Below, one piece after another: positions 4,889 through 63,155 of a stretch of DNA of 64,000 bases. Source of the DNA: Planctomycetota bacterium (GTDB taxonomy: Bacteria > Planctomycetota > PLA2 > JAEUHO01); contig CBDCTJ010000007.1 in assembly GCA_965222115.1 (NCBI GenBank), positions 2,688,001 to 2,752,000 of the forward strand, in the 5' to 3' direction. Both the position numbers and the translations under genes were made by a program. Below the pieces are notes generated by a model. The model saw only the letters and a list, made by a program, of their open reading frames with translations. It searched no databases and was not told the DNA's origin. The stretch's first letter is position 1, and each line of letters starts with the position of its first letter.

Positions 4889-4968
4889 GCCGTCACCCGA
4901 TACCCGTCAGCCGACACCCGGACTCCACTGTGAGCATCCGAAGATCGATTCGCATCGAACGGTGGACG
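4889..4968 (+). repeat. solo composite repeat copy E (degenerate)
   Basis: gccgtca-cccgata-cccgtca-gccgaca-cccggactccactgtgagcatccg..gattcgc..gtggac; matches the copies at 42720, 43422 and 44129. Confidence 0.8.
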
Positions 4969-39957: not shown

Positions 39958-40175
39958 CGTCCACCGTTCGATGCGCAACGCGCAGATCAAAGATCTGCTG
40001 GTGCTTACTCAGGGTCTTCGCGCAAATGGCAATGCCATTTGCTCTTGACGTCCACGTTAAAGCGGCGCGAGTCGTTCATCGAATGCTCAAACCTGAGTCA
40101 GGGTAACGGGCGACGGAAACTTGGGAAACACGCCGATTGGTCCAGCGCGATCGGTACGCGCGGACGCTGCGATGG
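39958..40175 (-). repeat. gene-less degenerate copy H of the composite element with flanks
   Basis: colinear with 55929-56165, e.g. ggtgcttactcagggtcttcgcgcaaatggc..gccatttgctcttgacgtccac and tccagcgcgatcggtacgcgc. Confidence 0.85.
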
Positions 40176-40360: not shown

Positions 40361-41914
40361 ATGAGGTTTGCATTTCGACTCACTGTAGTGCTTGTGTGCG
40401 GGGCAGCGTTCGCGCTGACGCCCGCCGCCGATGCGCGCGAGAAATCCAAGGACGAAACGATTGTCAAGGGCAAGCTCGGCGCGGAACTCGATGAACGAGT
40501 CAGCGACAAAGTGCCTGAGTTTTGGGGGTCGGTGCTCGTTGCCAAGAAGGGCAAGGTGTTGTTGGCCAAGGGCTATGGCATGGCCGACTACAAGAACAAG
40601 CCCAACACGGCACGGACGCTGCACGAGCTCGCGTCGGCAAGCAAGCAGGTCGCGGGTACGGCCATTTTGCATCTTCAGCAGCGACGCAAACTCAAGATTG
40701 GCGATTCGATCGGGAAATATTTCAAGAAGGTGCCCAAGGAGAAGAAGGCCATCACAATTCGTCATCTTCTGACCCACACCTCCGGAATTTCCAGAGAGGC
40801 TGGAGTCTCTTACGCATCGCCCATCGACCGAAAGAACTACGTCAAAAAAATGATGGCCGAGCCGCTTGATTCCAAACCGGGTGAGACCTACGCCTATAGC
40901 AATGTTGGCTATGCCTTACTGGCGGCCATTGTTGAGCAGGTCTCGAAGATGACGTATGAGGAATACGTTGAGAAATACTTGTTCAAACCTGCGGGACTGA
41001 AGGATACCGGGTTTATCGGTGACAAGGATCTACAAGAGACAGGACGTGCTTCCGTGCGCAAGGGGCGACTTCGCGGCAAGACGGCCGCCGACTGGCATTA
41101 TGGGTGGGGCTACCGCGGGATGGGCGGCGTGGTCACAAGTGTCTTGGATCTACTGAAGTGGGACCGGGCACTGCGCGACGACACGATTCTGAAAGAAGAG
41201 GCACGCGAGGCGCTCTACATGCCCTACAAGAACTTCTATGCCTGCGGATGGGAAGTCGAACATACCGACCGAGGCACGCGCTGCGTGCATCACTCAGGTG
41301 GTGTTGAGGGCTATGGCACAAACGTCATTCGCTATCTCGAAGACGACGTGTGTGTGTTCGTGCTCTCCAACAAAGGCGACTCGGCCCACAAGGTATCGGC
41401 CGCACTCGAAGCGGTTCTTTTCAAGCCCACTTCGATTCAGGTGAGCATCGACGTGACACCCTACGGCGGTGGGGGCCGCACGCTCAAGACACCAACCACC
41501 CTCACGTGGGGCGTCTCTCGCAAGGGGCGAGATTTGGTGATTGAGGTCCTCGACAAAAAGACCGTTGTACTGGGACTGCGCTTGCCCAAGAAAACGTATG
41601 GTAAGAAGCTCCTGTTCGAACTTGAGCATTCGATTCAGTCGCGCGAATCCGATGAGAAGGCGTCCACATCGCAGTGTCAGGCCGAGCTCCACCTAGGGGG
41701 TTACGGCCCGTCCGCCAAGATCGTTCATCCTTTTGGTCAAGTGCGCTTTGCCGCCGAACACCGCGGTCGAACAACTACCGGCGAGCCGAAGATTGACCGA
41801 CGCGTGACACTGGTTCTCACCGATACACGCTCCGGCGGCATGACGGGCGTCGTGCTCATGAACCTCATCAGCGCAAAGGCGTTGCTCGAAAAACTCTCCA
41901 AAGCGGTTCGATAG
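40361..41914 (+). CDS. serine hydrolase, beta-lactamase class C family
   Basis: signal peptide; ASASK (SxxK), LLTHTSG, YSN, HSGG. Confidence 0.9.
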   Translation: MRFAFRLTVVLVCGAAFALTPAADAREKSKDETIVKGKLGAELDERVSDKVPEFWGSVLVAKKGKVLLAKGYGMADYKNKPNTARTLHELASASKQVAGTAILHLQQRRKLKIGDSIGKYFKKVPKEKKAITIRHLLTHTSGISREAGVSYASPIDRKNYVKKMMAEPLDSKPGETYAYSNVGYALLAAIVEQVSKMTYEEYVEKYLFKPAGLKDTGFIGDKDLQETGRASVRKGRLRGKTAADWHYGWGYRGMGGVVTSVLDLLKWDRALRDDTILKEEAREALYMPYKNFYACGWEVEHTDRGTRCVHHSGGVEGYGTNVIRYLEDDVCVFVLSNKGDSAHKVSAALEAVLFKPTSIQVSIDVTPYGGGGRTLKTPTTLTWGVSRKGRDLVIEVLDKKTVVLGLRLPKKTYGKKLLFELEHSIQSRESDEKASTSQCQAELHLGGYGPSAKIVHPFGQVRFAAEHRGRTTTGEPKIDRRVTLVLTDTRSGGMTGVVLMNLISAKALLEKLSKAVR

Positions 41915-41946
41915 CGTTCAACGGATGATGCCGGCGCAATTCACGC

Positions 41947-42576
41947 CTACTCATCTTCCCCTCGATGCGCCGTCGCTTCTTCGTCCACCCAATCCTCTTC
42001 TTCGTAGGACATGCCGCGGCGGCCGGGGACCTTGCGGGTGGGGCCGGATTTGTAGAGCGGGCAAGATTTGGGGCCGTAGCAGAAGGTTTCGCGGCGGTAG
42101 CGGCGCTGCTTGGGATTCCAGTGGTCGATGATCACTTCGACCGCCATTTCACAAGCCCACATGCATGAGACGCACATATTTGCGAAAGTGCGCGCGGCCA
42201 ATCGTCGGTGGCCGCGTTCGCGGTAGGTGGGGAGTTCCGGGGGGACGCCGAGAAAGGGAGGAGGTTGTACGAGTTTCACGGTTGAGGGACGTTCTGCTTT
42301 GAGGCGACTAATCTTATAGAGATCGGCCACCTCGCGTCGCGGTTCGGCAACGAGCACGCCCAATCCGGAGACGGTGTCGTCCGCGCGGAAGAGATGTTTC
42401 GATTGTGCGGCCTTGCCGATTGCGACTGCGAACAGCCGCTCTTCTTCGCCACATGTTCCATCGATTCGAAGGACATAGCCGAGGTAGCTGTGACTGCGCT
42501 GGTCAAAGCTCCTCGTGAGTCGGATTCGGGGCTGGACGGAGACGACGAGCCCCTTCCAGGCGATTTTGAAGGTCAT
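41947..42576 (-). CDS. conserved hypothetical Cys-rich basic protein
   Basis: CVSCMWACEM..WNP..TFCYGPKSC; AGGGA SD. Confidence 0.7.
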   Translation of the reverse strand: MTFKIAWKGLVVSVQPRIRLTRSFDQRSHSYLGYVLRIDGTCGEEERLFAVAIGKAAQSKHLFRADDTVSGLGVLVAEPRREVADLYKISRLKAERPSTVKLVQPPPFLGVPPELPTYRERGHRRLAARTFANMCVSCMWACEMAVEVIIDHWNPKQRRYRRETFCYGPKSCPLYKSGPTRKVPGRRGMSYEEEDWVDEEATAHRGEDE

Positions 42577-42719
42577 GGTATCCCTACTCTACATCTCAGG
42601 GCGTTCAAGCGCCACGCCTTCAGCATGGTTGTGCGTTCGGGCACGATCTGATAGCAGAGCGCGGCTTGAGCGACTGTGCGTGGTGGAGCAGTTTGCGTTG
42701 ACGTCCGATGTCCCGCTTT

Positions 42720-42840
42720 CCCGTGACCCGTGACCCGATACCCGGACTCAAGTGTGAGCGTCCGAAATTCGATTCACGCCAGCTCGTGGACGTGGACGTG
42801 GACGTGGACGTGGACGTGGACGTGGACGTGGACGTGGACG
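42720..42840 (+). repeat. composite repeat copy A: 3 heptamers, hairpin core, (GTGGAC)x9
   Basis: cccgtga cccgtga cccgata cccggactcaagtgtgagcgtccg..gattcacgcc; GTGGAC x9 at 42786-42839. Confidence 0.95.
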
Positions 42841-42841
42841 A

Positions 42842-43216
42842 TCAAGGCTCGTCGAACCTTCGTTGAAGCACGAACAACATAGCGGCGGATCGCTCTAGTA
42901 TGTTCATGACACCTGAGATTGCGGCCTCGCTGGCGAGTCCGAGTAGTAGAGCCTGATGTAGAGCGGCAATGGCCTCGGTGCATTCGGCGTGTGCGATGTC
43001 GTACGCTTTGCGTTTCTCGGCTGGCCGTCGTTTCGAGAGTCCTTCGGCGACGTTTAGGGCAACGCTGATACTTGCGCGCCTGAGTTGATCGGCGAGCTTT
43101 GCGTGGCCACGAGGCCATGCACCGCAGATTGCTACGCACTCGACCGACGCGGCCTGCGAAGCACGGTAGACATCGAAGCGTTTGAGGTATTCGAGCGTGG
43201 AAGATGCGCTTGTCAT
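42842..43216 (-). CDS. four-helix-bundle protein (23S rRNA IVP / Avd-like)
   Basis: FDVYR, LADQLRRAS.SVALNVAEG, AYDIA..EC.E. Confidence 0.88.
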   Translation of the reverse strand: MTSASSTLEYLKRFDVYRASQAASVECVAICGAWPRGHAKLADQLRRASISVALNVAEGLSKRRPAEKRKAYDIAHAECTEAIAALHQALLLGLASEAAISGVMNILERSAAMLFVLQRRFDEP

Positions 43217-43368
43217 GATGGAACTCCAGCGTGAAGGGATCGCAAGCCGTTTGCTCGCGTGTGCCCTTCACAAAAGAGCCGAAGGCGAAGGAGGGCACAC
43301 GCGAGCGGGTCGTACAAAGGAAGCCCTGCGCAAATGCGACAACTTGTTCTCAAGCTGGAGTTCCATCA
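43216..43368 (-). promoter_or_regulatory. structured leader sequestering the SD of the four-helix gene
   Basis: 15-bp perfect IR 43216-43230/43354-43368; inner 15-bp IR 43253-43267/43292-43306. Confidence 0.8.
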
Positions 43369-43421
43369 CAAGCGGCGCCCGCGCGTACCGGTCCGGTCGC
43401 GCATGAGTTACCGATGGCCTG

Positions 43422-43536
43422 CCCGGAATCCGATACCCGTCAACCGTTACCCTTTACCCGAAACCCGTCACCCGGACTCAAGTGTGAGCGTTCGATGGTC
43501 AATTCGCGCCGGTCTAACGTGGACGTGGACGTCAAG
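43422..43536 (+). repeat. composite repeat copy B: 7 heptamers, core, (GTGGAC)x2
   Basis: cccggactcaagtgtgagcgttcg at 43471; gtggacgtggacgtcaag. Confidence 0.92.
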
Positions 43537-43576
43537 TAGCGCACTAGCCGCGTGCGGCCGATACCGGATAAACACC

Positions 43577-43731
43577 GAACTGTCTGCTGTGTGACGTGAA
43601 GGCGCACTGGGCAACACCCTTTGGGAAGTGCTACGTGCATGCCCCATTCGCCATGAGGGCGAGGGCACGCACTCGCATTCCCGCGGGTGTTTCCTCGTGG
43701 AGCTTCTCGTATGTCACACAGCAAACAGTTC
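43577..43731 (+). promoter_or_regulatory. structured leader pairing over the start codon of the four-helix gene
   Basis: 43577-43597 pairs with 43711-43731 (one G-U, one mismatch); nested aacaccc/gggtgtt, gtgcatgccc/gggcacgcac, tcgcc/ggcga. Confidence 0.75.
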
Positions 43732-44097
43732 TCGGTTTCCTCCACAGCTAGTCGGCTTGAGCGATTCGACGTGTATCGAATCGCGCGGCGTGCCGCTGCC
43801 AGTATTCACCAGCTTTGTGGATCGCTACCGCGAGGCAACGCCGAGCTTGCAAGCCAAGCTCGACGCGCCTCGACCGCCGTCGTTCTCAACATCGCTGAAG
43901 GCATCGGGCGCGCTGGCGCAGGCGCCAAGCACCGTTCGTTCTCCATCGCTCGCGGCGAGTGTGTCGAAGCCGCTGCGGCACTCGACCTCATGGATGCAAT
44001 GGGCATCCTCGCCAGCGCCCACGCCGCACCGACGCTTCGCGACCTTGACCGCGTTCGCGCGATGCTGAATGCGCTCATCCGCCGTTGGAGGGAGTGA
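43711..44097 (+). CDS. four-helix-bundle protein (23S rRNA IVP / Avd-like)
   Basis: LERFDVYR, LASQARRAS.AVVLNIAEG, FSIARGEC.E; GGAG SD. Confidence 0.9.
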   Translation: MSHSKQFSVSSTASRLERFDVYRIARRAAASIHQLCGSLPRGNAELASQARRASTAVVLNIAEGIGRAGAGAKHRSFSIARGECVEAAAALDLMDAMGILASAHAAPTLRDLDRVRAMLNALIRRWRE

Positions 44098-44128
44098 AGC
44101 GTTCCCATTTATGCACAGCGTCGCGCAC

Positions 44129-44257
44129 TCCGTCACCCATTGTCCGTCACCCGTTACCTGTCACCCGTTACCCGGACTCCAGTGTGAGCGTCCGATAGTC
44201 GATTCACGCCTGCTCGTGGACGTGGACGTGGACGTGGACGTGGACGTGGACGTGAAC
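44129..44257 (+). repeat. composite repeat copy C: 6 heptamers, core, (GTGGAC)x6
   Basis: cccggactccagtgtgagcgtccg at 44171; gattcacgcc; GTGGAC at 44216-44251. Confidence 0.95.
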
Positions 44258-44297
44258 GCGCAAATCCGTGCCGGGATCACACGTGCGATCTGCAATA

Positions 44298-44365
44298 TCC
44301 GAAAGCCGTTACCCGACACCCGTCCCCCGGACACCCAACTGAGCATCCGACGAACGATTCGCGCC
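44298..44365 (+). repeat. degenerate composite repeat copy D
   Basis: 4 heptamers, cccggac..tgagcatccg, gattcgcgcc. Confidence 0.75.
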
Positions 44366-44421
44366 GCACGCATCGATGGGTGACGGGGACTGTCCCCCCG
44401 CGCGGGGAGGCTAGGAGCCTC

Positions 44422-45354
44422 ATGATTGATCGCCGCCCTTCCGAATCCAGTACGCGCGCGCGTGTTGCGCAGCTCGATATGCGACTTGCCCTTGAGGGCA
44501 GTCAACTTGTGCACGGTGATTGTCTGGAAGTCATGCAGCGCCTGCCGGATGCGTGTTTGGATCTGATTTACATCGACCCGCCGTTTTTTACCGGCAGCAA
44601 AAAGTTGGGACCGCGGGACCTTGATGGCGAAACGCACGCGGCTCAATTCGATGATCACTGGCCCGGGGGATTGACGGCCTATTTGAGCTGGCTCATGCCA
44701 CGCATTGCAGATATGCATCGCCTGCTAAAAGACACCGGGTCCATGTATATCCATCTCGACTGGCATGCAGTGCATTACGTCAAGGTCGAGGCCGATCGCA
44801 TCTTTGGTTACGACAACTTTCTCAATGAGATTGTGTGGCTCTATGGACTGGGGGGGAGTTCCCCGCGCTACTGGCCGCGCAAGCACGACACGATTTTGTG
44901 GTACGCCAAAAATGCCAAACAACACTACTTCGTGGCCGATCGGATACCGGCCACATCGCAGCGTCTCAAGGGGCAGACCAAGAAGGCGCCCGACACGTGG
45001 GATATTCCAGCACTCAACAATATGTCTCGCGAGCGCTCGGGGTATCCCACACAGAAGCCGGAAGCATTGCTTGAACGCATTGTTCGAAGCTCGTGTCCCG
45101 AGGACGGACTGTTTGCTGACTTCTTCTGTGGCTCCGGTACGTCGTGCGTGGCCGCCGAGCGATTGGGACGCAAGTGGATCGCATCGGACACATCGAGTGA
45201 TGCGATTCAAACCACCGAGTCGCGACTGCATGCCTACCTTGCCGAACAAATTGCCAAGCGCCATCCCGGCCATTTGACGCGCGCCAAGGGGGCGACTTCG
45301 TCACGTCGAAAACGGCGCGTTCCGCTTCCGAGTTTCGTTGTCTTACGGGCGTAG
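44422..45354 (+). CDS. N6/N4 DNA methyltransferase, beta class (orphan)
   Basis: GDCL, IYIDPPF, YPTQKPE, DFFCGSGT; AGGAG SD. Confidence 0.93.
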   Translation: MIDRRPSESSTRARVAQLDMRLALEGSQLVHGDCLEVMQRLPDACLDLIYIDPPFFTGSKKLGPRDLDGETHAAQFDDHWPGGLTAYLSWLMPRIADMHRLLKDTGSMYIHLDWHAVHYVKVEADRIFGYDNFLNEIVWLYGLGGSSPRYWPRKHDTILWYAKNAKQHYFVADRIPATSQRLKGQTKKAPDTWDIPALNNMSRERSGYPTQKPEALLERIVRSSCPEDGLFADFFCGSGTSCVAAERLGRKWIASDTSSDAIQTTESRLHAYLAEQIAKRHPGHLTRAKGATSSRRKRRVPLPSFVVLRA

Positions 45355-45379
45355 AACCGTAGAACCAACGACCCCATTG

Positions 45380-47212
45380 CTACGGTTTCTTGGTTCGGGA
45401 CAAGTTGGTTGGCCGCACGTCGATCAAACGCAACTCGGCGGTGGTCATCCCGCGCCAGTGGTTTAGGTAGGGGACCACCGCCACATCGAGCGGCTGGCCT
45501 TGACCGACCACGTCAAAGAGGGCTGCTTGGCGCCACCCAACCACCCGAATGGCGCCACCGGTCTGCTTGAGCGCAAAGGAGAGGTGCGTTGCGTTCTTGC
45601 CCATGAGTTTGGGCTTGCCCGCTAGCTCTGCACCCTTGAGTACAAACACGGGCTCTGGGTTGCCCTGGCCAAAGGGCGCAAGTCTGTGCAATGCTTCAAC
45701 CGTATCGACGTGCCAATGATCCACCGACGATTCGGCATCGAAATACAGCGCGCCCGAGGCTTCGGTCTGTTCTGCCTGCCGGGTGACCGCGCGTTCGAAT
45801 GCAGCGCGGAACGCATCGAGCTGACTGCGAGCAACCTCGAGCCCCGCCGCCATGGCATGGCCACCATGGGCCGCAAGAACGTCATGACAAGCAGCAAGCG
45901 CGTGATGGAGGTCGTATCCCGGTGGGGTGCGGCATGAGCCACGACCTTCGTCACCTTGCATACCGACGACGGCCGTGGGCAGACCAAAGCGATCCACAAG
46001 TCGCGCGGCCACGATACCGATCACGCCAACATGCCAATCGTCACCCCAAAGCACCAAACTCTTACGCGGGCTTCCCAGCGATTCATGCTCAGCGAGCAAC
46101 GTCTGTGCAGCATGTTCGGCCTGCTTGAGTACGCCCTGCTCGATCTCACGACGTTTCGTGTTGGCCTGATCCAGGGCCTGGGCTTTTCGTTCACATACAT
46201 CCGGATCATCGGAGACCAGGAGCTCAATAACCAACTCGGGTTGGCTCAACCGCCCCGCCGCGTTTAGCCGGGGACCCAACCGAAATCCAATGTCCTCTGC
46301 CGTAATGGGCAACTCACCCACATCCGATACGCGTAGTAGCGCCTGAACGCCCGCATGCGGCGATTCGCGCAGTGCCTTGAGACCATTGGCCACGAGCACA
46401 CGATTCTCTCCATGAAGCGGCACGACATCGGCCACCGTGGCAATCGCCACGAGCCCAACGGCATGTTTCATAAAGCGCTTAAACTCGGCGGCCCTCGAAC
46501 GCAGAACACCGCCTCGCAACCGATCGGCGATTCCCCAGGCGAGTTTGAAGGCCACGCCACAACCGCAGAGAGGCGGTGCGTCGTTACTCGAATCCGAAGT
46601 CTGTATGGATCCATCGGCCGCAAGATGCGGATTCACAATCGCGCACGCGGTCGGCAATCGATTCCCTGGGGGATGATGGTCTGTGATGACGACGTCGATG
46701 CCATGCTGCGTAGCGGCATCCACCGCGTCGTGGGCAGAGATGCCGTTGTCCACCGTGACGGCGACATTGACCTCGCGCGCCTTGAGTTCATCGATGGTTT
46801 CGCGTCGGAGGCCGTAGCCATCGGCGTCACGTAACGGAATCGACCAACTCACATTGGCGCCGAGCAAGTTGAAAAATCGAACCAGGAGTGCCGTTGCCGT
46901 CATGCCATCGACATCGTAGTCACCGCAGATTGCGATGTGTTCATCGTCGGTGATGGCGCGCGCGAGCCGATCGGCGGCGTTGTCCATCCCTGGCAACTCG
47001 AACGGAGAGCTCAAGTGGGCCAGCTTCGGCTCTAGGAATCGCTGAGCCTCATGGCGGGTGCGAACACCTCGCTCCCAAAGCAAATTGGCCACCAAACCAT
47101 CAACATCGAGCGCTGCACAAAATGCGTCACGACCTTCTTCCCGTGCCTCAGAGGCGGGCTCCGCGGCGCGCGCGTCCCGTGCTCGTCGCAAGCGCCATGG
47201 GCGGCGAGACAT
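45380..47212 (-). CDS. recJ: ssDNA exonuclease RecJ
   Basis: GDYDVDG, TVDNG, ITDHH, TVADVVPL, PRLNAAGR, GGHAMAAG, PFGQGNPEP. Confidence 0.96.
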   Translation of the reverse strand: MSRRPWRLRRARDARAAEPASEAREEGRDAFCAALDVDGLVANLLWERGVRTRHEAQRFLEPKLAHLSSPFELPGMDNAADRLARAITDDEHIAICGDYDVDGMTATALLVRFFNLLGANVSWSIPLRDADGYGLRRETIDELKAREVNVAVTVDNGISAHDAVDAATQHGIDVVITDHHPPGNRLPTACAIVNPHLAADGSIQTSDSSNDAPPLCGCGVAFKLAWGIADRLRGGVLRSRAAEFKRFMKHAVGLVAIATVADVVPLHGENRVLVANGLKALRESPHAGVQALLRVSDVGELPITAEDIGFRLGPRLNAAGRLSQPELVIELLVSDDPDVCERKAQALDQANTKRREIEQGVLKQAEHAAQTLLAEHESLGSPRKSLVLWGDDWHVGVIGIVAARLVDRFGLPTAVVGMQGDEGRGSCRTPPGYDLHHALAACHDVLAAHGGHAMAAGLEVARSQLDAFRAAFERAVTRQAEQTEASGALYFDAESSVDHWHVDTVEALHRLAPFGQGNPEPVFVLKGAELAGKPKLMGKNATHLSFALKQTGGAIRVVGWRQAALFDVVGQGQPLDVAVVPYLNHWRGMTTAELRLIDVRPTNLSRTKKP

Positions 47213-47385
47213 CGCCGTGGGGTTGGATCCCGATGAAATAGCCGACCTCCCTCCGAAGCGGTCACGGAGTGGACTCGTTGTACACGCCCAAAGCCCCAGT
47301 TCCGCGCGTGTTTGATCGGGGCCGCCAAATAGGCGGGGTTCATTCGTTTTCAGTAGCATGACCGCCCGCACCTTCGGAGACCCCC

Positions 47386-49317
47386 ATGGCGGCAGCCGCC
47401 GTTCGACGCATCATTTTGGGAACTGCCGGGCACATCGACCACGGCAAGACCTCGCTCGTCAAGCGTCTCACCGCCAGTGAGGAGGCCGATCGCCTGCCCG
47501 AAGAGCGCACGCGTGGCATGACGATCGATATCGGCTATGCCACATTCATGTTGCCCGACGGCACGGAAGCCGGGTTGCTCGACGTGCCGGGTCACGAGAG
47601 TTTCGTCCACACGATGGTGGCGGGCGCCACGGCGATGGACGTTGCCCTACTCGTCGTGGCGGCCGACGACGGTCCCATGCCCCAAACCCGCGAACACATT
47701 GAGATTCTGGATGTGCTCGGCGTGAACCGGTTGGTCGTTGCGCTGACCAAGATCGACCTCGTGGATGCGGACATGGTCGAACTCGCCACCGAAGCGGTCA
47801 ACGAACTGGTCGAGACCACCTCATTGAAGGGCGCGCCCGTCGTTCCCGTCAGTTCGGAAACGGGCGAGGGTTTTGACGCACTCAAGAAGGCCATCGTCGG
47901 AGCAATTCCGAAGAGCCGGAAGGCCAAGGAGAGTCGCTTCGCCTTCCGCATGCCGATTCTGCGACGCTTCGATGTGGCGGGCCGGGGCGTCGTGGTGACC
48001 GGTATTCCGTTGTCCGGACACATCGCGGTGGGGGACGGGATTGAGATTCAGCCCATTGGCGCGCCGTGCCGGGTGCGGAGCATTCAAGTCCATCATCGCG
48101 AAGCCGAGGAGGCGCGCGCGGGTCATCGCACGGCCATGGCGATCAGCGACGTGAAAGCGAGTGCCATTCGTCGCGGCATGGTGGTGAGTCAAGCGGGACT
48201 TGTAGCGCCCACCACACGACTCGTCGCTCGCCTAGATTTGCTGGAGAGCGCCCGCAAGCCCATCCAACATCGTGATCGCGTTCGTCTTCACCTGGGGGCG
48301 TCGCAAACCGTCGCGCAAGTCCACTTGCCCTTGCGCAAAGCGGTTCCACCGGGGTCGAGTGAAATCGTGGAGCTTCAGGCAGTAGCCCCTGTGATCGCCC
48401 TTCCGGGGGACGCCATGGTGCTGCGCGAAGAGAATGCGGCATCAACACTGGGTGGTGGCGTGGTGATTGAGCCTCTAGCGCGTCGGCTCCCCAGTAAACG
48501 GCAGGGGCTAATCGATCGTTTGCGCGACCGCACAAATCACTTGGACTCTCCCAAACATCTCGTGGAGGCCATAGTCGAGGCCGCGGGGATGGATGGCTTG
48601 CTTGAGAGCGAGATCACGAAAACCACCTCGATTGTGCCCAAAGCGCTTTCCGGACTCATGCAGGGGCTTGCGGGCAAAAACACGTTGCGGCCCATCGGTC
48701 GCTCCGGTCGTTGGATCGCCCCCGGCCACTTTGGTTCGGTTCGGGATCGCATTGTCGAAGTCGTCAAGCGCCTGCACACCAAAGACGAAGCGGTGGATAG
48801 CTTGCCCATTGCACAGATTCGAAGTTCGCTTGGGCGCATTCACGAAGCCGTCTTCGATGAGGCCCTGCGTTCACTCACCGATGATGGGGAGTTGGTGCGC
48901 ACAGCGGGCGGCACCATCTACCACCATGAACACAGCTCCGAGCTACCTCCCAAGGACAAAGCCGTTTGCGAGCGCGTAATCAATGTGTTGGCGAAAGCCG
49001 AAGGGCGACCGCCAAGCGAAGAAGATCTTGCGGGTTTGGCGGGAATCTCCTCGTCGGACTTGAAGCGTGCGCTGCGGCTACTTGCGGCGCGAAATCTCAT
49101 TCTTCGAGCCGAACCCTATTGGTTTGAAGGCGCGTGGGTCGAGCAGTCCAAGTTGAAACTGGCCGAGATTGCCAAAGCACAAGGTGGATTTTCGCCGGCG
49201 GATGCCCGCAGCGCGCTTGACACAACGCGCAAGTGGATCATTCCGCTGCTTGAAGCGCTCGACAAAACGGGCTTCTCACGTCGGGCGGGCTCGAAGCGCG
49301 TCCTCCGCTCGAACTAA
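47386..49317 (+). CDS. selB: selenocysteine-specific elongation factor
   Basis: [32 protein letters not shown]-terminal winged helix [12 protein letters not shown]. Confidence 0.95.
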
Positions 49318-49336
49318 CGAGTTCGAGCTAGCGGCT

Positions 49337-50323
49337 CTACTTCTTGCGCGTGGCCGAATTGCTTGAGGACGATTTGCGTGCTGCTGGTGGCGAGAAGGTC
49401 TTTGGCTTGAGCTGTGCATTGACGCGAATCACATTGGGAAACGCAAGCAAGAAACGCTTCATCTGCGCACCGGGACGTGCCTGCGTGTAGGCCTCGATAC
49501 GGCCGGGGTAGCGGAACTGGGGTCCCTGTTTCCACTCTTGCAAGAGGTAATACTCAGTCGGCTCCCCGCGTTCGGGACGGCCCACAACGGTCACGATGCC
49601 CGGATGATTGACGCGGCGAATGCGCCCGTACTGATCTTCTTCATGGGCGAAGAAAAACACGATCGTGGCGCCACCGGGCACCTCGCGCGTGATTTGAACC
49701 CACTTGCCGGCAAAGGTGGACGAGCCCTTCTTCTTTCCATCAAAGGAGAACTTTACGCCGGGTCCCTTGAGACCCTGAAGCGTGACGAACTTGCTGAGGT
49801 CGGCGAGGCGCGTGCGGTCCTTCCGAAGTTGGTTGATGGCTTTGGCGCCACCTTCCTTGCCGTGCATGCGCGTGACACGCCCATTGGACGAGACGACCCA
49901 CATCTTGTCGCCATTGAGAATCTTGGTGGTGGTGTTGCGCAGAGGCTTGCGGGGGCGAATTTCGAAGCGGTACTTATCGGGATCCTGAAACCAAAGCCGC
50001 ACGAAGCCCTCTTGGTGCTGGGCGTCCACCTTCATCTGCACGTCTTCAAGGTCGCAGTAGAAATTGTTGACATCGGGTATTCGTCCGCGTCCTGCACTGA
50101 CCCATGCAATGGCTTGATCGAAGTATTGCGCGCCGAGTTTGTAGTCGGGTTTACGTGGTGCCGTGCTTGCGGGCTTTGCCTTGACGGGTGCCGATGCGCC
50201 GCCACGGGCCTCAACGCTGGATGGTGCACCTATGAATACGCTCAAGGCAAGAATGGCTGCGGCGCTTCCGAGCACGAGCCCGCGTCTCATGGATGCGCTG
50301 AAAAACGTTGTCTTCTTGCTCAT
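49337..50323 (-). CDS. exported LolA-like beta-rich protein
   Basis: signal peptide ending VEA; LWFQDPDKYRFE, KILNGDKMW. Confidence 0.65.
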   Translation of the reverse strand: MSKKTTFFSASMRRGLVLGSAAAILALSVFIGAPSSVEARGGASAPVKAKPASTAPRKPDYKLGAQYFDQAIAWVSAGRGRIPDVNNFYCDLEDVQMKVDAQHQEGFVRLWFQDPDKYRFEIRPRKPLRNTTTKILNGDKMWVVSSNGRVTRMHGKEGGAKAINQLRKDRTRLADLSKFVTLQGLKGPGVKFSFDGKKKGSSTFAGKWVQITREVPGGATIVFFFAHEEDQYGRIRRVNHPGIVTVVGRPERGEPTEYYLLQEWKQGPQFRYPGRIEAYTQARPGAQMKRFLLAFPNVIRVNAQLKPKTFSPPAARKSSSSNSATRKK

Positions 50324-50573
50324 GGCACTTCCTCGTTTTGGCCGCTTCAACCGCGCCCACCTGATATGAGATTCACGTCCCTGCACGTGTGTATCGGCGT
50401 CATCTTAGCCCGTTGGCACGCAGGGTCCTCGTCTGGTTCAGGCAAAATGAACGACAGGCAAAATGAACGAACCGAGCGCGACGGTCTGGTGGGCGTTGCC
50501 TTCGATTCGCAAAAACGAAGTAAACGCCCGAATACGCCGATGAACGTTCCGAGTCCCAAGTCCTTTCGCCGCG

Positions 50574-51608
50574 TTACCGGCGCGGGCGCTGAAAACGTGT
50601 CGGGTCGATGCCGGCGTTGATTTTGATATCGCGCACGGTGGCCTGAAGGAATCGCGCGGGCGAACCTCCCGGCCTCAGGGAATAGGCCTCAATCTGACGG
50701 GGATAGCGAAACGTTCTGGGCTGACGGGGGTCCGAATCGCGCCAATCGCGGAGGATGTAATCCTCGGTGGGGATGCGTTGGCGTGGATCGCCGTCGATGC
50801 GAACGATGCCCGGATAGCGCACGACGTACTGCCCTTGCTGATTACGAGAGTAGGCGAGCCAGAAGTGCATCGTGGCAGCGCCGGGTGCGCGACGCGTGAT
50901 CTTAAGCCAGTTACCTGCGTAGCTGCCGGTGCCGCGCTTTTCGCCTTTGAAGATGAATGAAGCGCCCGGCTTCTTAAGTGCGCCCAACGTCATGAACTTG
51001 GCGAGGTCGCCCAAGCGATCTCGGTCATTTTTCAACTGCGTAATCGTGCGCCGCGCGCCTTCCTTGCCATGCACGCGCGAGACGCGCCCACGCGGATCGA
51101 CAATCCACATGAAATCGGCATTGAGGATCTTTGTAGTTCGGGCGCCCTGAAGCGTGAGTTCTTGACGGAACTTATCGGGCTGTTGCCACCAAATGCGCAT
51201 GGGTCCCGTGTGGCTTGAGCCTGGCAGGACGATGTGGGCGTCCAGGTTGATGTAAAAATCGGATGTGTGTTGAATGCCCGTGGAACCCTTGGAAACCCAA
51301 CGAACGCATTGATCAAAGAGCGCGGGACCCCAGCTTGCGCGACTTGCAGGTCGGGGCGCCGCGGTTCCGCCCCGTGCCTCGGCATCGCGTGGTGCCTTGA
51401 CGCCATCGCATACGAACGCCGCCGATGCGATGCATACGATGGCCATGCCCTTTGCCAAAGGACCGAGGCATCGACGTGGATCGCGCCATCCATCGCGGCA
51501 CATGCTCGTACGCCTGTTCACATTGCTATTCGAATCGTTCTCGCGGCTCGAATGTTTCCTGCTCGAATGGTTCTTGCTCGAATGGTTCATCGTGCGACCT
51601 GTCTCCAT
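50574..51608 (-). CDS. paralogous exported LolA-like protein
   Basis: IWWQQPDKFRQE, TTKILNADFMW, DRDRLGDLAKF; start uncertain. Confidence 0.65.
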   Translation of the reverse strand: METGRTMNHSSKNHSSRKHSSRENDSNSNVNRRTSMCRDGWRDPRRCLGPLAKGMAIVCIASAAFVCDGVKAPRDAEARGGTAAPRPASRASWGPALFDQCVRWVSKGSTGIQHTSDFYINLDAHIVLPGSSHTGPMRIWWQQPDKFRQELTLQGARTTKILNADFMWIVDPRGRVSRVHGKEGARRTITQLKNDRDRLGDLAKFMTLGALKKPGASFIFKGEKRGTGSYAGNWLKITRRAPGAATMHFWLAYSRNQQGQYVVRYPGIVRIDGDPRQRIPTEDYILRDWRDSDPRQPRTFRYPRQIEAYSLRPGGSPARFLQATVRDIKINAGIDPTRFQRPRR

Positions 51609-52012
51609 CGGTGCAAATCTCCGGTCGTGTGTGCCTCGAACATGCGTCGGTACTTCTGATTGGAACTAGGGTCCGAAAAAAACGCCCAGATCCTCGTTCA
51701 ACCAAAAACTCACGGAAGCCAAAAAACTCACGGAAGCGGGCGTGCCCGGAATCGACGCGCGAGCCGCGGCCCAGCATCGTCCAAACCCGTATGGGGTGCG
51801 TGCCAAGAATCCAGCGTCACTCTACGCGATATTGGGGTCAAACCATCATCTCTCTGTTGCTACCGACGAGATTCCCTCATTCCGACGCCGGGACGAACGA
51901 TCGGTGGGCGCCTCATTCACCAATGTGTCACACAAGTTCGGCCCAATTTCAGCCAAGATGCCGCCCGCGGCGCGGCTTTGTCCGTGAACGCTCACCGCGT
52001 AGACTCGCATCA

Positions 52013-53185
52013 ATGTCATCCATCGCGCGTGATCGCATTCGCCGTTGCCTCGCCATGATTCCCCTCATTCGCGCGCGTCCCGGGATTCGTATTCCCGATT
52101 TGGCGAGCATCTTCGGTGTGCGCGAGGACGAGATTTGGGAGGACATTACCGAAGTCCTCACCATGTGCGGCATTCCACCGTACCTGCCGCACAACTACCT
52201 CGTGTTTTCGATTCTTGGCGATCGCGTGAGCATTCGCTTTGCCGAGCATTTGAGCCGTCCGGTTCACTTGACGCTCCAAGAGGCGTTGGCGATTGACTTG
52301 GCATTACGCAGCGTGTCGGGCGGGCGTGTGCCCACGTTTGGCGATGCGGCGCCACGGCTGCGGAAAACCGTGCGGGGATTGATTCGCGGCAAGGACCGCA
52401 CAGCCCTCGATGTTTTGGATCGCGCTGTAGGCGGCACGGCGCCCACCGATCATGTGACCGGTACGATCGGCGTTCTCAAAGCGGCCATGGCTAGAAACGT
52501 CGCAGTGTCGATTTCCTACTACACCGCCAGCCGTGATGCAGTCAGTGAACGGGTTCTTGAACCCTATGGCCTTATTGATCACAGCGGCCATTGGTACGTC
52601 ATTGGCCGAGACCCCGCACGGAATCGTGAAGCACCGTTTCGCGTGGATCGCATCAATACGGCTGCATTGGTTGAGGGGCATGAATACGAGGTGCCGGACT
52701 CGTTTACGACCGAGTCGTATCGACGTGACGAAATGTGGATTCCGGGCCCCGATGATGTGTTGGTGCGCGTTCGATTCTCAAAACGCGCCGCACCGCGAAT
52801 TCGAGAAGGTGTGCCGAAGAAGTTGATCGAAGAATTGCCAGGCGGTGAAGTGATTCGCACGTTCCGCATCAATGCCGATCGTCCGCGGTGGCTTTACACC
52901 CACATTGCTCGCTACGGATCGCATGCCGAAGTGATGACGCCTGAGCATGTACGTTCGGGAATGGCCGCGTTCCTTGATGAAGTTCTCGGGACGTATGGTG
53001 TTGATGCTCAAGACATGAGTACTAACGGCAAGCGTGGCCAAACACCGGATGATGAAGGGCTAAAGCCCATGACGCCGACCACGCGCAAGGCCGCGGCTTC
53101 GTCTCCGCCACGCCGCTCCGCGTCGGCGCGCCGAGCAACGCGAAAAGCCCCTAAGCGGTCTTCGAGGAAGCGCCCGTCCGAATAA
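52013..53185 (+). CDS. PafC-like HTH-WYL-WCX transcriptional regulator
   Basis: RIRRCLAMIPLI..LASIFGV..LTMCGIP, YYTASRD..ER..EPY, WYVIG, FRVDRI. Confidence 0.88.
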   Translation: MSSIARDRIRRCLAMIPLIRARPGIRIPDLASIFGVREDEIWEDITEVLTMCGIPPYLPHNYLVFSILGDRVSIRFAEHLSRPVHLTLQEALAIDLALRSVSGGRVPTFGDAAPRLRKTVRGLIRGKDRTALDVLDRAVGGTAPTDHVTGTIGVLKAAMARNVAVSISYYTASRDAVSERVLEPYGLIDHSGHWYVIGRDPARNREAPFRVDRINTAALVEGHEYEVPDSFTTESYRRDEMWIPGPDDVLVRVRFSKRAAPRIREGVPKKLIEELPGGEVIRTFRINADRPRWLYTHIARYGSHAEVMTPEHVRSGMAAFLDEVLGTYGVDAQDMSTNGKRGQTPDDEGLKPMTPTTRKAAASSPPRRSASARRATRKAPKRSSRKRPSE

Positions 53186-53348
53186 GCGGGGTGATTCGTC
53201 GTAATTCCCGTTCCCGGTGGCACTTCCGTTTGCGCGTTGCTATCATTTGCGGCTGAAGGTGCTCACTGATTCCGGAGCGTCCGGGCACGTGTGCGCTTCC
53301 CTGGTACCTGCCGGCCATGCTCAGCACTCCGGCATTTGGGGCTCGGCT

Positions 53349-55916: not shown

Positions 55917-56014
55917 AAGGGCGGTTGCTCGTCCACCCTTCGGTGCGCACTGCGCGGATCAAAGATCCGCCGGTGCTTACTCAGGGTCTTCGCGCAAATG
56001 GCAAAGCCATTTGC

Positions 56015-56113
56015 TCTTGACGTCCACGTCCACGAACCGGCGTGAATCGAATATCGGACGCTCACACTTGAGTCCGGGTGACGGATTTCGGGTAACGGGT
56101 GATGGGTGACGGG
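56015..56113 (-). repeat. composite repeat copy F: 5 heptamers, core, (GTGGAC)x2
   Basis: reverse complement cccggactcaagtgtgagcgtccgatattcgattcacgccggttcgtggacgtggacgtcaag. Confidence 0.95.
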
Positions 56114-56172
56114 AGCTTGGAATGCGCGACCGGTTGCTCCAGCGCGATCGGTACGCGCGAACGGCGCTTGTA

Positions 56173-56321
56173 ATGGAACTCCAGCTTGAGAACGGGGTGT
56201 CGCGATCACGCGGACTTCTGTTTGAGCGACCCGCTCGCGTGTGCCCTCCCTCGCCTTCGGCTTCTTTGTGAAGGGCACACGCGAGCAAACGGCTTGCGAT
56301 CCCTTCACGCTGGAGTTCCAT
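56173..56321 (+). promoter_or_regulatory. structured leader sequestering the SD of the four-helix gene
   Basis: 13-bp IR 56173-56185/56309-56321 (contains GGAG); inner 15-bp IR 56233-56247/56272-56286. Confidence 0.8.
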
Positions 56322-56322
56322 C

Positions 56323-56697
56323 ATGACAAGCGCATCTTCCACGCTCGAATACCTCAAACGCTTCGATGTCTATCGTGTGTCGCAAGCCGCGGCGGTCGAG
56401 TGCGTCGCAGTCTGCGCCGCATGGCCTCGGGGCCACGCAAAGCTTGCCGACCAACTCCGGCGCGCAAGCGCCAGCGTTGCACTCAACGTTGCAGAAGGAC
56501 TAGCGAAACGCCGCCCCGCCGAGAAGCGCAAGGCATACGACATCGCCCACGCCGAGTGCACCGAAGCGATCGCTGCGCTACATCACGCCCTTCTCCTCTG
56601 GATCGCGAGCGAGCACGCGACCTCTCGAGCCATGAATAACCTAGAGCGCGCCGCCGCCATGCTATTCGTGCTGCAACGCAAGTTTGGCGATCCTTGA
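56323..56697 (+). CDS. four-helix-bundle protein (23S rRNA IVP / Avd-like), close paralog of 42842-43216
   Basis: 124 aa; 106/124 identical to the 42842-43216 product by manual alignment. Confidence 0.88.
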   Translation: MTSASSTLEYLKRFDVYRVSQAAAVECVAVCAAWPRGHAKLADQLRRASASVALNVAEGLAKRRPAEKRKAYDIAHAECTEAIAALHHALLLWIASEHATSRAMNNLERAAAMLFVLQRKFGDP

Positions 56698-56699
56698 CG

Positions 56700-56809
56700 G
56701 TCCACGTCCACGTCCACGTCCACGTCCACGAACCGGCGCGCATCGAATATCGGACGCTCACACTTGAGCCCGGGTATCGGGGTACGGGTAACGGGTAACG
56801 GGTGACGGG
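56700..56809 (-). repeat. composite repeat copy G: 5 heptamers, core, (GTGGAC)x5
   Basis: GTCCAC x5 at 56700-56729; cggacgctcacacttgagcccggg. Confidence 0.95.
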
Positions 56810-56880
56810 CAACCGAGGCGCGCTGCTTTAGTGCGCGCGCGATTTGCACCCGGCACTATTTTGCGGGTACGGAGGCAAGA

Positions 56881-63011: not shown

Positions 63012-63066
63012 TGCTGAGTCTTTGCTGATAGGCTGAGCATAAAAATCTACTACTTGCAACGCCTTT

Positions 63067-63155
63067 GCCGATATTCGTCACCCGGACTCAAGAGTGAGCG
63101 ATCGGTGATCGATTCACGCCACAACATCAAGAGCAAATGGCTTCGACATTTGCGC
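63067..63155 (+). repeat. solo composite repeat copy I
   Basis: cccggactcaagagtgagcgatcgg..gattcacgcc..tcaagagcaaatgg..catttgc. Confidence 0.88.

Follow-up and report, generated by a model that had tools for sequence, protein, structure and literature searches.

The 64-kb window analysed here (the whole stretch of DNA, C7:2688001-2752000) lies on contig C7 of a 4.55-Mb Planctomycetota genome assembly in seven contigs, labelled G000 below. At 42711-44366 it carries an array of composite direct repeats, which we call R, with two genes for small four-helix-bundle proteins of the PF05635/TIGR02436 family set between them (Table 1). About 50 copies of R and all 18 genes of this kind in the genome, whose products have a fold like that of Avd from diversity-generating retroelements, are found around the replication terminus. 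This suggests a replication-linked element or a terminus system not described so far. In a search with its RecJ protein the organism falls within Planctomycetota, the best match having 55% identity.

A repeat finder recovered an 87-nt repeat four times on the same strand of the array, with starts at 42694, 43424, 44124 and 44279 and hence spacings of 730, 700 and 155 nt. The 24-nt cores of the first three copies have 0, 1 and 1 mismatches; at up to three mismatches the core has seven matches in the window, compared to none in 100 shuffled sequences. The parts of R follow one another in the order of CCCGWNN-type heptamers, core, TCGATTCRCGCC box, 5-nt spacer and a run of (GTGGAC)n. R is asymmetric, and the stem in its core is short (~8 pairs). 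Each of the two long intervals holds exactly one gene, on the minus strand in the first and on the plus strand in the second. A sequence-only reading of this DNA had described same-orientation composite repeats with one four-helix-bundle gene per interval, a structured leader of ~150 nt and a decayed fourth repeat. All of this was borne out, by the repeat finder, the PF05635 scores, the folding statistics given below and, for the fourth repeat, its identity and profile match. The array is real, but it is only part of the pattern, for further copies of R stand at 4891, 40052, 56027, 56723 and 63064.

Table 1. Features of the array and of the other R copies in the window, with positions counted from the first nucleotide of the window
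Feature	Position	Strand	Remarks
R1	42711..42839	+	heptamer-like units 42711-42740; core 42741-42764; box 42765-42780; (GTGGAC)x9 42786-42839
Type A four-helix-bundle gene, 124 aa, PF05635/TIGR02436	42842..43216	-	antisense to R; E 1e-15
Leader of gene A, long hairpin	43217..43368	-	outer arms 43216-43234/43350-43368; inner arms 43253-43267/43292-43306
R2, centre of divergent A-R-B pair	43424..43533	+	core 43471-43494; two GTGGAC units
Leader of gene B, long hairpin	43570..43738	+	arms 43570-43595/43713-43738
Type B four-helix-bundle gene, 128 aa from ATG, PF05635/TIGR02436	43711..44097	+	sense with R; E 9e-19
R3	44124..44258	+	core 44171-44194; six GTGGAC units
R4, decayed	44279..44366	+	nhmmer E 3.2e-6; 64% identity to reference copy
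Solo R between convergent genes	4891..4968	+	core/profile match
Solo R (40052-40119) with module T (anchor 39992-40016)	39992..40119	-	oriented against replication
Module T, two-hairpin repeat of ~85 nt	55930..56020	-	follows many R copies
Second locus, third cassette in window	56027..56801	-	inverted relative to replication; = C7 2744027-2744801
Parts of the second locus			R 56027-56104; leader ~56172-56322; type A gene 56323-56697 (+); R 56723-56801
Solo R without hexamer run	63064..63121	+	

Both array genes score well above the family cut-offs, with 58.3 and 68.1 bits for PF05635 (cut-off 33.8) and 54.5 and 70.1 bits for TIGR02436 (cut-off 24), and all 18 copies in the genome exceed the PF05635 cut-off. 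A profile built from 28 members of the clade matches the PDB entries 2gsc (9e-21) and 2rld (7e-7), both with five chains. The AlphaFold model of protein B (predicted local distance difference test score 93.9) has four long helices after one short N-terminal helix. Foldseek ranked 2gsc (template modelling (TM) score 0.78-0.90) and 2rld (0.73-0.88) first, followed by Avd (4dwl_D, TMq 0.70, TMt 0.82, 12% identity) and then by the ribonucleoprotein of a diversity-generating retroelement (8ube_D with TMt 0.84, and 8ub7). The Avd-like fold, which the sequence-only reading had named, is hence confirmed for the predicted structure. At the level of sequence, the profile of the 28 clade members gave no Avd match, and identity to Avd is 10-12%. 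Structured RNA is bound by Avd together with a reverse transcriptase (Foldseek entries 4dwl and 8ube). No reverse transcriptase is adjacent to the genes studied here, and therefore membership of a diversity-generating retroelement is not supported.

The two leaders fold much better than expected from their composition. In comparison with 200 shuffles the z-scores were -5.27 for leader A and -6.15 for leader B, and none of the 200 shuffles folded as well. The 3' arm of leader A covers both a GGAG ribosome-binding site and the ATG, while that of leader B covers the start codon region. Across the genome, the 165 nt upstream of the ATG have a mean identity of 0.89 among the 10 type A copies and 0.88 among the 8 type B copies, and third codon positions, at 0.67-0.68, lie below these values. 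Reading frames are open in all 18 genes. Mean rates of nonsynonymous (dN) and synonymous (dS) substitution are 0.076 and 0.684 in type A (ratio 0.11, n=10), and 0.044 and 0.576 in type B (ratio 0.08, n=8). A dS of 0.6-0.7 indicates that the copies are old, and the low dN/dS together with the leader identity indicates that purifying selection acts on both protein and leader. Acting alone, gene conversion would not have exempted the coding region.

A comparable leader occurs in related genomes (labelled by further G numbers). There, CCTCC in an outer stem pairs with GGAGG of the ribosome-binding site, and an inner hairpin accompanies this stem. The inner hairpin (17 sequences from five genomes) has 15 pairs, with 96% of the cells paired versus 42-50% when the structure was slid along the alignment. 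Five of its pairs have changed on both sides, a number reached by only 1 of 500 shuffles, which supports covariation. A covariance model of the relatives' leader found matches in 5 of 40 genomes (G003, G036, G020, G034 and G013), and these adjoin PF05635 genes wherever coordinates were compared. The model had no match in G000. Hence, the leaders of G000 share their design, and no detectable sequence homology, with those of the relatives. Sequence by sequence, pairing of the ribosome-binding site reaches 60% in 22 of 46 leaders, which shuffles often equal in GC-rich DNA. Rfam gave no match at the gathering score in the 64-kb window and none at E<=1 in 41000-46000. We regard the leader as a candidate new cis-regulatory RNA motif.

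How far the pattern extends beyond the array became apparent from a profile of R built from 15 copies. Searched over the genome with nhmmer, it gave 62 matches at E<=1 and 50 at E<1e-5. Each of the 18 PF05635 genes has an R within 470 nt, and 16 of them have R on both sides (E<=1e-3). Conversely, 31 of the 50 R copies adjoin a PF05635 gene and 19 are solo. The unit of repeat, gene and repeat thus recurs, and the two expectations of the sequence-only reading, that the core would flank PF05635 genes genome-wide and that solo repeats would exist, both agree with the census. Gene polarity is fixed relative to R: the 10 type A genes (profile positions 2-104) are all antisense, and the 8 type B genes (positions 2-106 or 3-106) all sense. 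Divergent A-R-B pairs occur at four loci, the array pair being of that type, and an array never holds more than two genes. The number of GTGGAC units varies from 0 to 33. In alignments of all A and of all B units, similarity begins at the heptamers and ends after the hexamers, and the outer flanks are unrelated. Therefore, whole segments were not duplicated.

The copies are confined to the surroundings of the terminus. On C7, all 46 copies lie within 2,274,471-2,939,331, and the other four are on contig C3, which has a negative skew as in the right replichore; the R-bearing region amounts to ~15% of the genome. On C7 the cumulative GC skew is lowest at 0.58 Mb and peaks at 2.76-2.78 Mb. At this peak, ~22 kb past the right end of the window, lies a dif-like site (C7:2,773,937), found with a dif consensus that matches the genome at only two places. 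With origin and terminus at these positions, the word GGTGGGGG has a leading:lagging ratio of 214:5, an independent check of the replichore assignment. Plus-strand R gives way to minus-strand R between 2,755,532 and 2,813,527, an interval that brackets the dif-like site. Orientation agrees with local skew in 44 of the 50 copies and at 23 of the 27 C7 loci (two-sided binomial p ~3e-4 for the loci, by our own arithmetic). The remaining six copies (12%; 4 of the 27 C7 loci) are reversed, including the intact cassette at C7 2744027-2744801, ~30 kb from dif. Since R flips with the replichore, its top strand lies on the lagging-strand template. Neither the confinement nor the flip was part of the sequence-only reading, and together they change which mechanisms are likely.

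We rejected the explanation that R orientation is a by-product of neighbouring transcription. At 15 of the 27 C7 loci R lies between convergent genes, where flipping it changes nothing, and genes on the left replichore are only weakly strand-biased (710 of 1237); both counts rest on a crude home-made gene caller. A role for R like that of the FtsK-orienting polar sequences (KOPS) was rejected as well, because outside R its sub-motifs GTGGAC (1151:1011) and ACCCGTC (167:236) are not skewed. As a separate observation, GGTGGGGG and GTGGGGG (461:47) are strongly leading-strand on C7, and also skewed on contigs of the related genome G020; they offer a candidate for a KOPS-like word that orients FtsK in this planctomycete.

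Several families of small repeats make up a mosaic in the terminus region. Module T has 30 copies genome-wide at up to four mismatches to its 25-nt anchor, some of which stand alone on contigs C1 and C3. The sequence of its first hairpin varies between copies with the pairing kept, and is followed by a conserved CCTGAGTAAGCAC stretch, a second hairpin (GCGGATC...GATCCGC) and GTGCGCATCGAAGGG. One copy (55850-56350), compared at a relaxed Rfam threshold, gave chance-level microRNA matches only. A short hairpin module like CCCGCAAAAAAGTGCCGGGTGTAAATTTGCGGGG recurs near cassette ends, as in the left flanks at C7 2315440, 2346400 and 2669400. Contigs C6 (48 kb, 39.7% GC) and C4 (28.7 kb, 55.4% GC, with a tyrosine recombinase) carry no R and differ from the 59% GC chromosome; either could derive from a plasmid, a phage or contamination during binning.

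The array itself sits between two divergent genes. On its left is a 209-aa open reading frame at 41947-42576 (-), which is cysteine-rich and without Pfam, NCBIfam or PADLOC match. On its right, 14 nt past the decayed R4, begins an N4/N6 DNA methyltransferase gene at 44380-45354 (+; PF01555, E 1.8e-46). The PADLOC defence search gave no match for A, B or the 209-aa neighbour. A sigma-70 consensus scan of 42600-44450 found no promoter, the consensus being uninformative for this phylum.

BLAST found R in none of 30 relatives, and exact-pattern scans for its core found none in metagenome contigs or in 185,579 species genomes. The distribution of PF05635 in the order is patchy: 13 of 31 related genomes, counting G000 itself, gave a match, and a tally of genomes at >=85% completeness gave 11 of 27. 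In the phylum it was matched in 214 of 301 genomes, often in several copies; the latter tally includes the unpublished genome G325. In closed genomes of the phylum the PF05635 genes are dispersed, among the matches listed. The A/B clade is divergent, with scores of ~1e-18 where most members from the phylum score ~1e-40. Members of this low-scoring clade are present in G020, G036, G003, G013, G034 and G001. In a tree that left out two of the relatives' 38 sequences for length, the copies of each genome form clades of their own, that is, lineage-specific expansions. The sequence-only reading had named vertical conservation in all relatives as the pattern that would speak against mobility. We found the opposite, with R absent from the 30 relatives and from the other records, and with expansions of the clade that are specific to each lineage.

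Among the relatives, G020, which belongs to another family, has a composite repeat homologous to R. Its divergent gene pairs are flanked by (GGGTTC)n, a short hairpin, a ATGATCGACTYCCGC box that resembles the box of G000, and (GTGAAC)n. In G036 and G003, hexamer-periodic repeats (GTTCTC/GTGCTC) and a leader stand upstream of the gene, with unique DNA downstream. We compared polarity in G020 over up to 100 kb around five loci, a small sample from a fragmented assembly. All three loci with an R box agree with local GC skew (C47, plus, +0.025; C39, minus, -0.040; C68, minus, -0.031), and so does a fourth, whose orientation was taken from tandem repeats and gene type alone. On C68 the skew switches from plus to minus at ~55-60 kb, and the cassettes lie at 62-69.5 kb, 3-10 kb beyond. 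The stretch G020:C68:55000-70000 (loci L119 and L002) hence holds a putative terminus beside three PF05635 cassettes. A strict pattern found no dif-like site at this switch.

The tandem arms of the repeats have a property of their own. In the heptamer arrays of the window (42711-42740, 43431-43470 and 44131-44170), the complement has GGG every 7 nt, a G-quadruplex-type motif. The (GGGTTC)n arrays of G020 and (TCCCCA)n arrays of G013 contain GGG runs too, and the G-rich strand is on opposite sides of the repeat in G000 and G020.

Part of the picture might be explained by an ordinary multigene family. R and the leader would then provide a promoter or operator and translational control, the copies would stem from local duplication and gene conversion in a recombination-prone terminus region, and orientation would come from selection, with tandem or G-rich repeats being tolerated in a single direction relative to the fork. 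In line with this, all cassette-bearing relatives have hexamer repeats and a leader upstream of the gene, G036 and G003 without any downstream repeat. The leaders are also more conserved than synonymous sites, and the GGG periodicity of the heptamer complement suits selection on G-rich repeats. Variable repeat numbers beside promoters are a known way of varying expression. A gene family of this sort, with its control regions repeated, leaves the solo copies without an explanation, however, of which many lie between convergent genes, and likewise the flanks that are unrelated right up to R in copies as far as 665 kb apart. It also fits poorly with R downstream as well as upstream of genes, and with a G-rich strand that is on opposite sides of the repeat in G000 and G020. 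We therefore consider this explanation unlikely.

Our favoured explanation is a family of transposase-less cassettes of ~0.7 kb whose spread is coupled to replication, although we would put it at somewhat less than an even chance. Sharp boundaries, solo and decayed copies, sites between convergent genes, a patchy distribution and lineage-specific expansions all fit an element. These traits, together with a concentration near the terminus and an orientation following the forks as in Tn7 with TnsE and in IS200/IS605 insertion sequences, lead us to prefer this reading. A cassette would consist of the polar repeat R, a leader whose hairpin masks the ribosome-binding site or start codon, and the gene for an Avd-fold protein. 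R would serve as cis-acting DNA site, with its top strand becoming transiently single-stranded on the lagging-strand template, and new copies may arise near the terminus, where forks slow or meet. The small protein could be the element's own nucleic-acid-binding cofactor. Possibly, the leader keeps translation off until the RNA is opened, while catalysis would be supplied by the host or by an unlinked enzyme.

Several observations weigh against the favoured explanation, the first being that no movement was seen. We examined four runs of one study, as Logan contigs, over 41500-57500 (a fifth run had almost none of the stretch's words, and no RNA run was among those listed for it). No contig joint removes a cassette, in contigs that break at repeats and cannot show rare forms. 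The few joints found (e.g., 56029 to 56130) have short sides and probably derive from paralogous copies. In addition, two solitary genes of G020 that have no R box break the orientation rule, and by our reading compensatory changes are missing from the core hairpin of R across its copies. Not one of the 18 genes is disrupted at a dS of 0.6-0.7 and a dN/dS of ~0.1, a state that is uncommon in non-autonomous selfish cargo and that a host function would explain just as well. Together with the lack of observed movement and the lack of a linked enzyme, discussed next, this keeps a host-function reading alive.

Candidate enzymes do occur in the genome, and they also count against the cassette family, as none is linked to it. 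The one clear Y1/RAYT gene (RAYT, transposase associated with repetitive extragenic palindromic sequences, REP) is at C7:1411600-1412047, and a second, weaker Y1 match at C7:1066506-1066745. There is no R within 0.86 Mb of the clear gene, and its flanking hairpins differ from R. Y1 enzymes were found in 23 of 40 genomes of the order without tracking the cassettes, and they are absent from the cassette-rich G036 and from G013. The link to HUH or TnpA-REP enzymes that the sequence-only reading had considered is thus not supported. Its other candidates, a co-occurring reverse transcriptase or tyrosine recombinase, fared no better. None of the seven reverse transcriptase matches adjoins a cassette, the nearest (2631845-2632531) ending 1.2 kb from R. 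The seven matches to tyrosine recombinases (PF00589), at C7 0.646, 1.625, 1.896, 2.413 and 2.445 Mb and on C4, likewise include none beside an array. No Y2 transposase or viral Rep match was found in the genome, in searches whose controls likewise failed to match.

Two of these enzyme searches revealed further loci. The clear Y1 gene belongs to a REPtron-like locus (C7:1411450-1412620) with no sequence relation to R, in which hairpins of GCGCCCTGTAAGGGCGC type, in inverted orientation, flank a 153-aa RAYT-like Y1 transposase together with a direct repeat of greater length. The reverse transcriptases include two sets of three with identical scores (C3:81659, C7:1984989 and C7:1004494; C7:881482, 2631845 and 3037923), with open reading frames of 515 and 445 aa, which probably represent two families of group II introns that are active.

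The sequence-only reading had proposed integron-style cassettes. In this case, R-by-R site-specific recombination would proceed via a circular intermediate of R plus gene, with a recombinase acting in trans. Direct R repeats bracket single genes, the orientation of each gene type relative to R is fixed, which recombination between R copies would preserve, solo copies could serve as empty attachment sites, and seven tyrosine recombinase genes are at hand. Yet, no recombinase gene adjoins any array; those at 2.413 and 2.445 Mb come nearest. An attI-like platform and a shared promoter are both lacking, the genes face both ways with a leader each, and an array has at most two genes. R does not have the long imperfect palindrome of attC; its core stem has ~8 pairs and no covariation. 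Circles or deletion joints were absent from the contigs, though contigs cannot show rare forms. In view of the missing adjacent recombinase, the individual leaders and the small arrays, this proposal is not supported, and we judge it very improbable.

The main rival is a host function, in which R and the proteins form a polar terminus-domain system. Here the proteins would bind the flanking R arrays as oriented barriers that pause or trap forks or organise the terminus. The geometry suits this idea: two opposed groups of sites flank the dif-like site over ~15% of the genome, and in G020 a cassette cluster lies beside a GC-skew switch. The 18 genes are intact under strong purifying selection, the box and hexamer motif of R recur in conserved form in a second family, and the genome has no match to Tus or RTP (PF05472, PF02334), in searches whose controls matched. 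However, six of the 50 copies are reversed, one of them in an intact cassette ~30 kb from dif; a reversed site of this sort would come at a high cost in a true fork trap. Most relatives lack the system, among them well-assembled genomes of 5 to 20 contigs, and the closed genomes of the phylum have dispersed PF05635 genes, among the matches listed. Furthermore, 18 paralogues, hexamer runs of 0-33 units and solo and decayed copies look like an expanding element, while the sub-motifs of R are unskewed outside R in a genome that already has a KOPS-like octamer. We think that this system, too, is not probable, about on a par with the gene family.

An intermediate possibility, which we see as a long shot, is that the modules of R plus gene are self-propagating polar terminus elements. 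A block formed by protein and R would pause forks or mark the terminus domain, and the pause would feed the duplication of the module. If true, a selfish cassette would double as a new termination or terminus-organising system, in a phylum lacking Tus and RTP.

Free-standing Avd-like PF05635 genes are very common in the phylum (in 214 of the 301 genomes, as stated above) and have no known function. One clade of them now has a candidate DNA partner in R, a candidate RNA partner in the leader hairpin, and a chromosomal signature. R, leader and terminus signature turn a 'function unknown' into experiments on binding, fork pausing and mobility. If the cassettes move, they would be a replication-coupled mobile element without recognisable transposase; if they do not move, R would be a new polar terminus-domain site with locally encoded proteins.

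Compared to known systems, the proteins are closest to the PF05635/TIGR02436 family itself (2GSC, 2RLD), also called '23S rRNA intervening sequence protein'. Both gene types score above its cut-offs, with a fold similarity to 2gsc and 2rld of TM 0.8-0.9. The clade studied here differs by its dedicated leader, its flanking short tandem repeats and its confinement to the terminus region, the last of these in G000. PF05635 has been connected with Avd before (PMC10053308). Avd of diversity-generating retroelements has the same fold, but here the identity is 10-12% and there is no adjacent reverse transcriptase or template/variable repeat pair.

Among mobile elements, IS200/IS605 excise and insert by use of the lagging-strand template and stalled forks (PMC5027513). 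Like IS200/IS605 and REP/RAYT systems, the cassettes are small, have one strand biased to the lagging-strand template (here 44 of 50) and have intergenic non-autonomous derivatives; the same paper describes an attraction of these elements to stalled forks. Unlike them, the cassettes have no Y1 gene in or beside them, and R, long and asymmetric, is a composite whose arms are microsatellites. Tn7 favours termination regions via TnsE with an orientation that follows the direction of the fork (PMC5371812). It is large and makes its own proteins, whereas the cassettes encode one protein of 124-128 aa. With integron cassettes, our cassettes share single genes between same-orientation repeats that resemble recombination sites. 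They differ in having no integrase or attI, no attC-type palindrome, a mixed gene orientation and at most two genes.

Fork traps (Ter/Tus and Ter/RTP) also have two opposed groups of polar sites around the terminus, and in known fork traps the terminator gene adjoins one of its own sites. They differ in scale, with ~10 sites of ~23-30 nt versus ~50 sites of ~100 nt here, of which 12% are mis-oriented, and with 18 protein genes. Moreover, the present system has no Tus or RTP and is absent from relatives, and the rule that every site lets origin-derived forks pass does not hold. KOPS and architecture-imparting octamers have a genome-wide strand skew that the sub-motifs of R lack. In the accessible literature (supplements and most subscription journals lay outside this coverage), no description of the architecture was found. 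It resembles known kinds, namely multi-copy PF05635 genes and small elements that are bounded by repeats and have an orientation bias linked to replication, and there is a real chance that the combination is categorically new.

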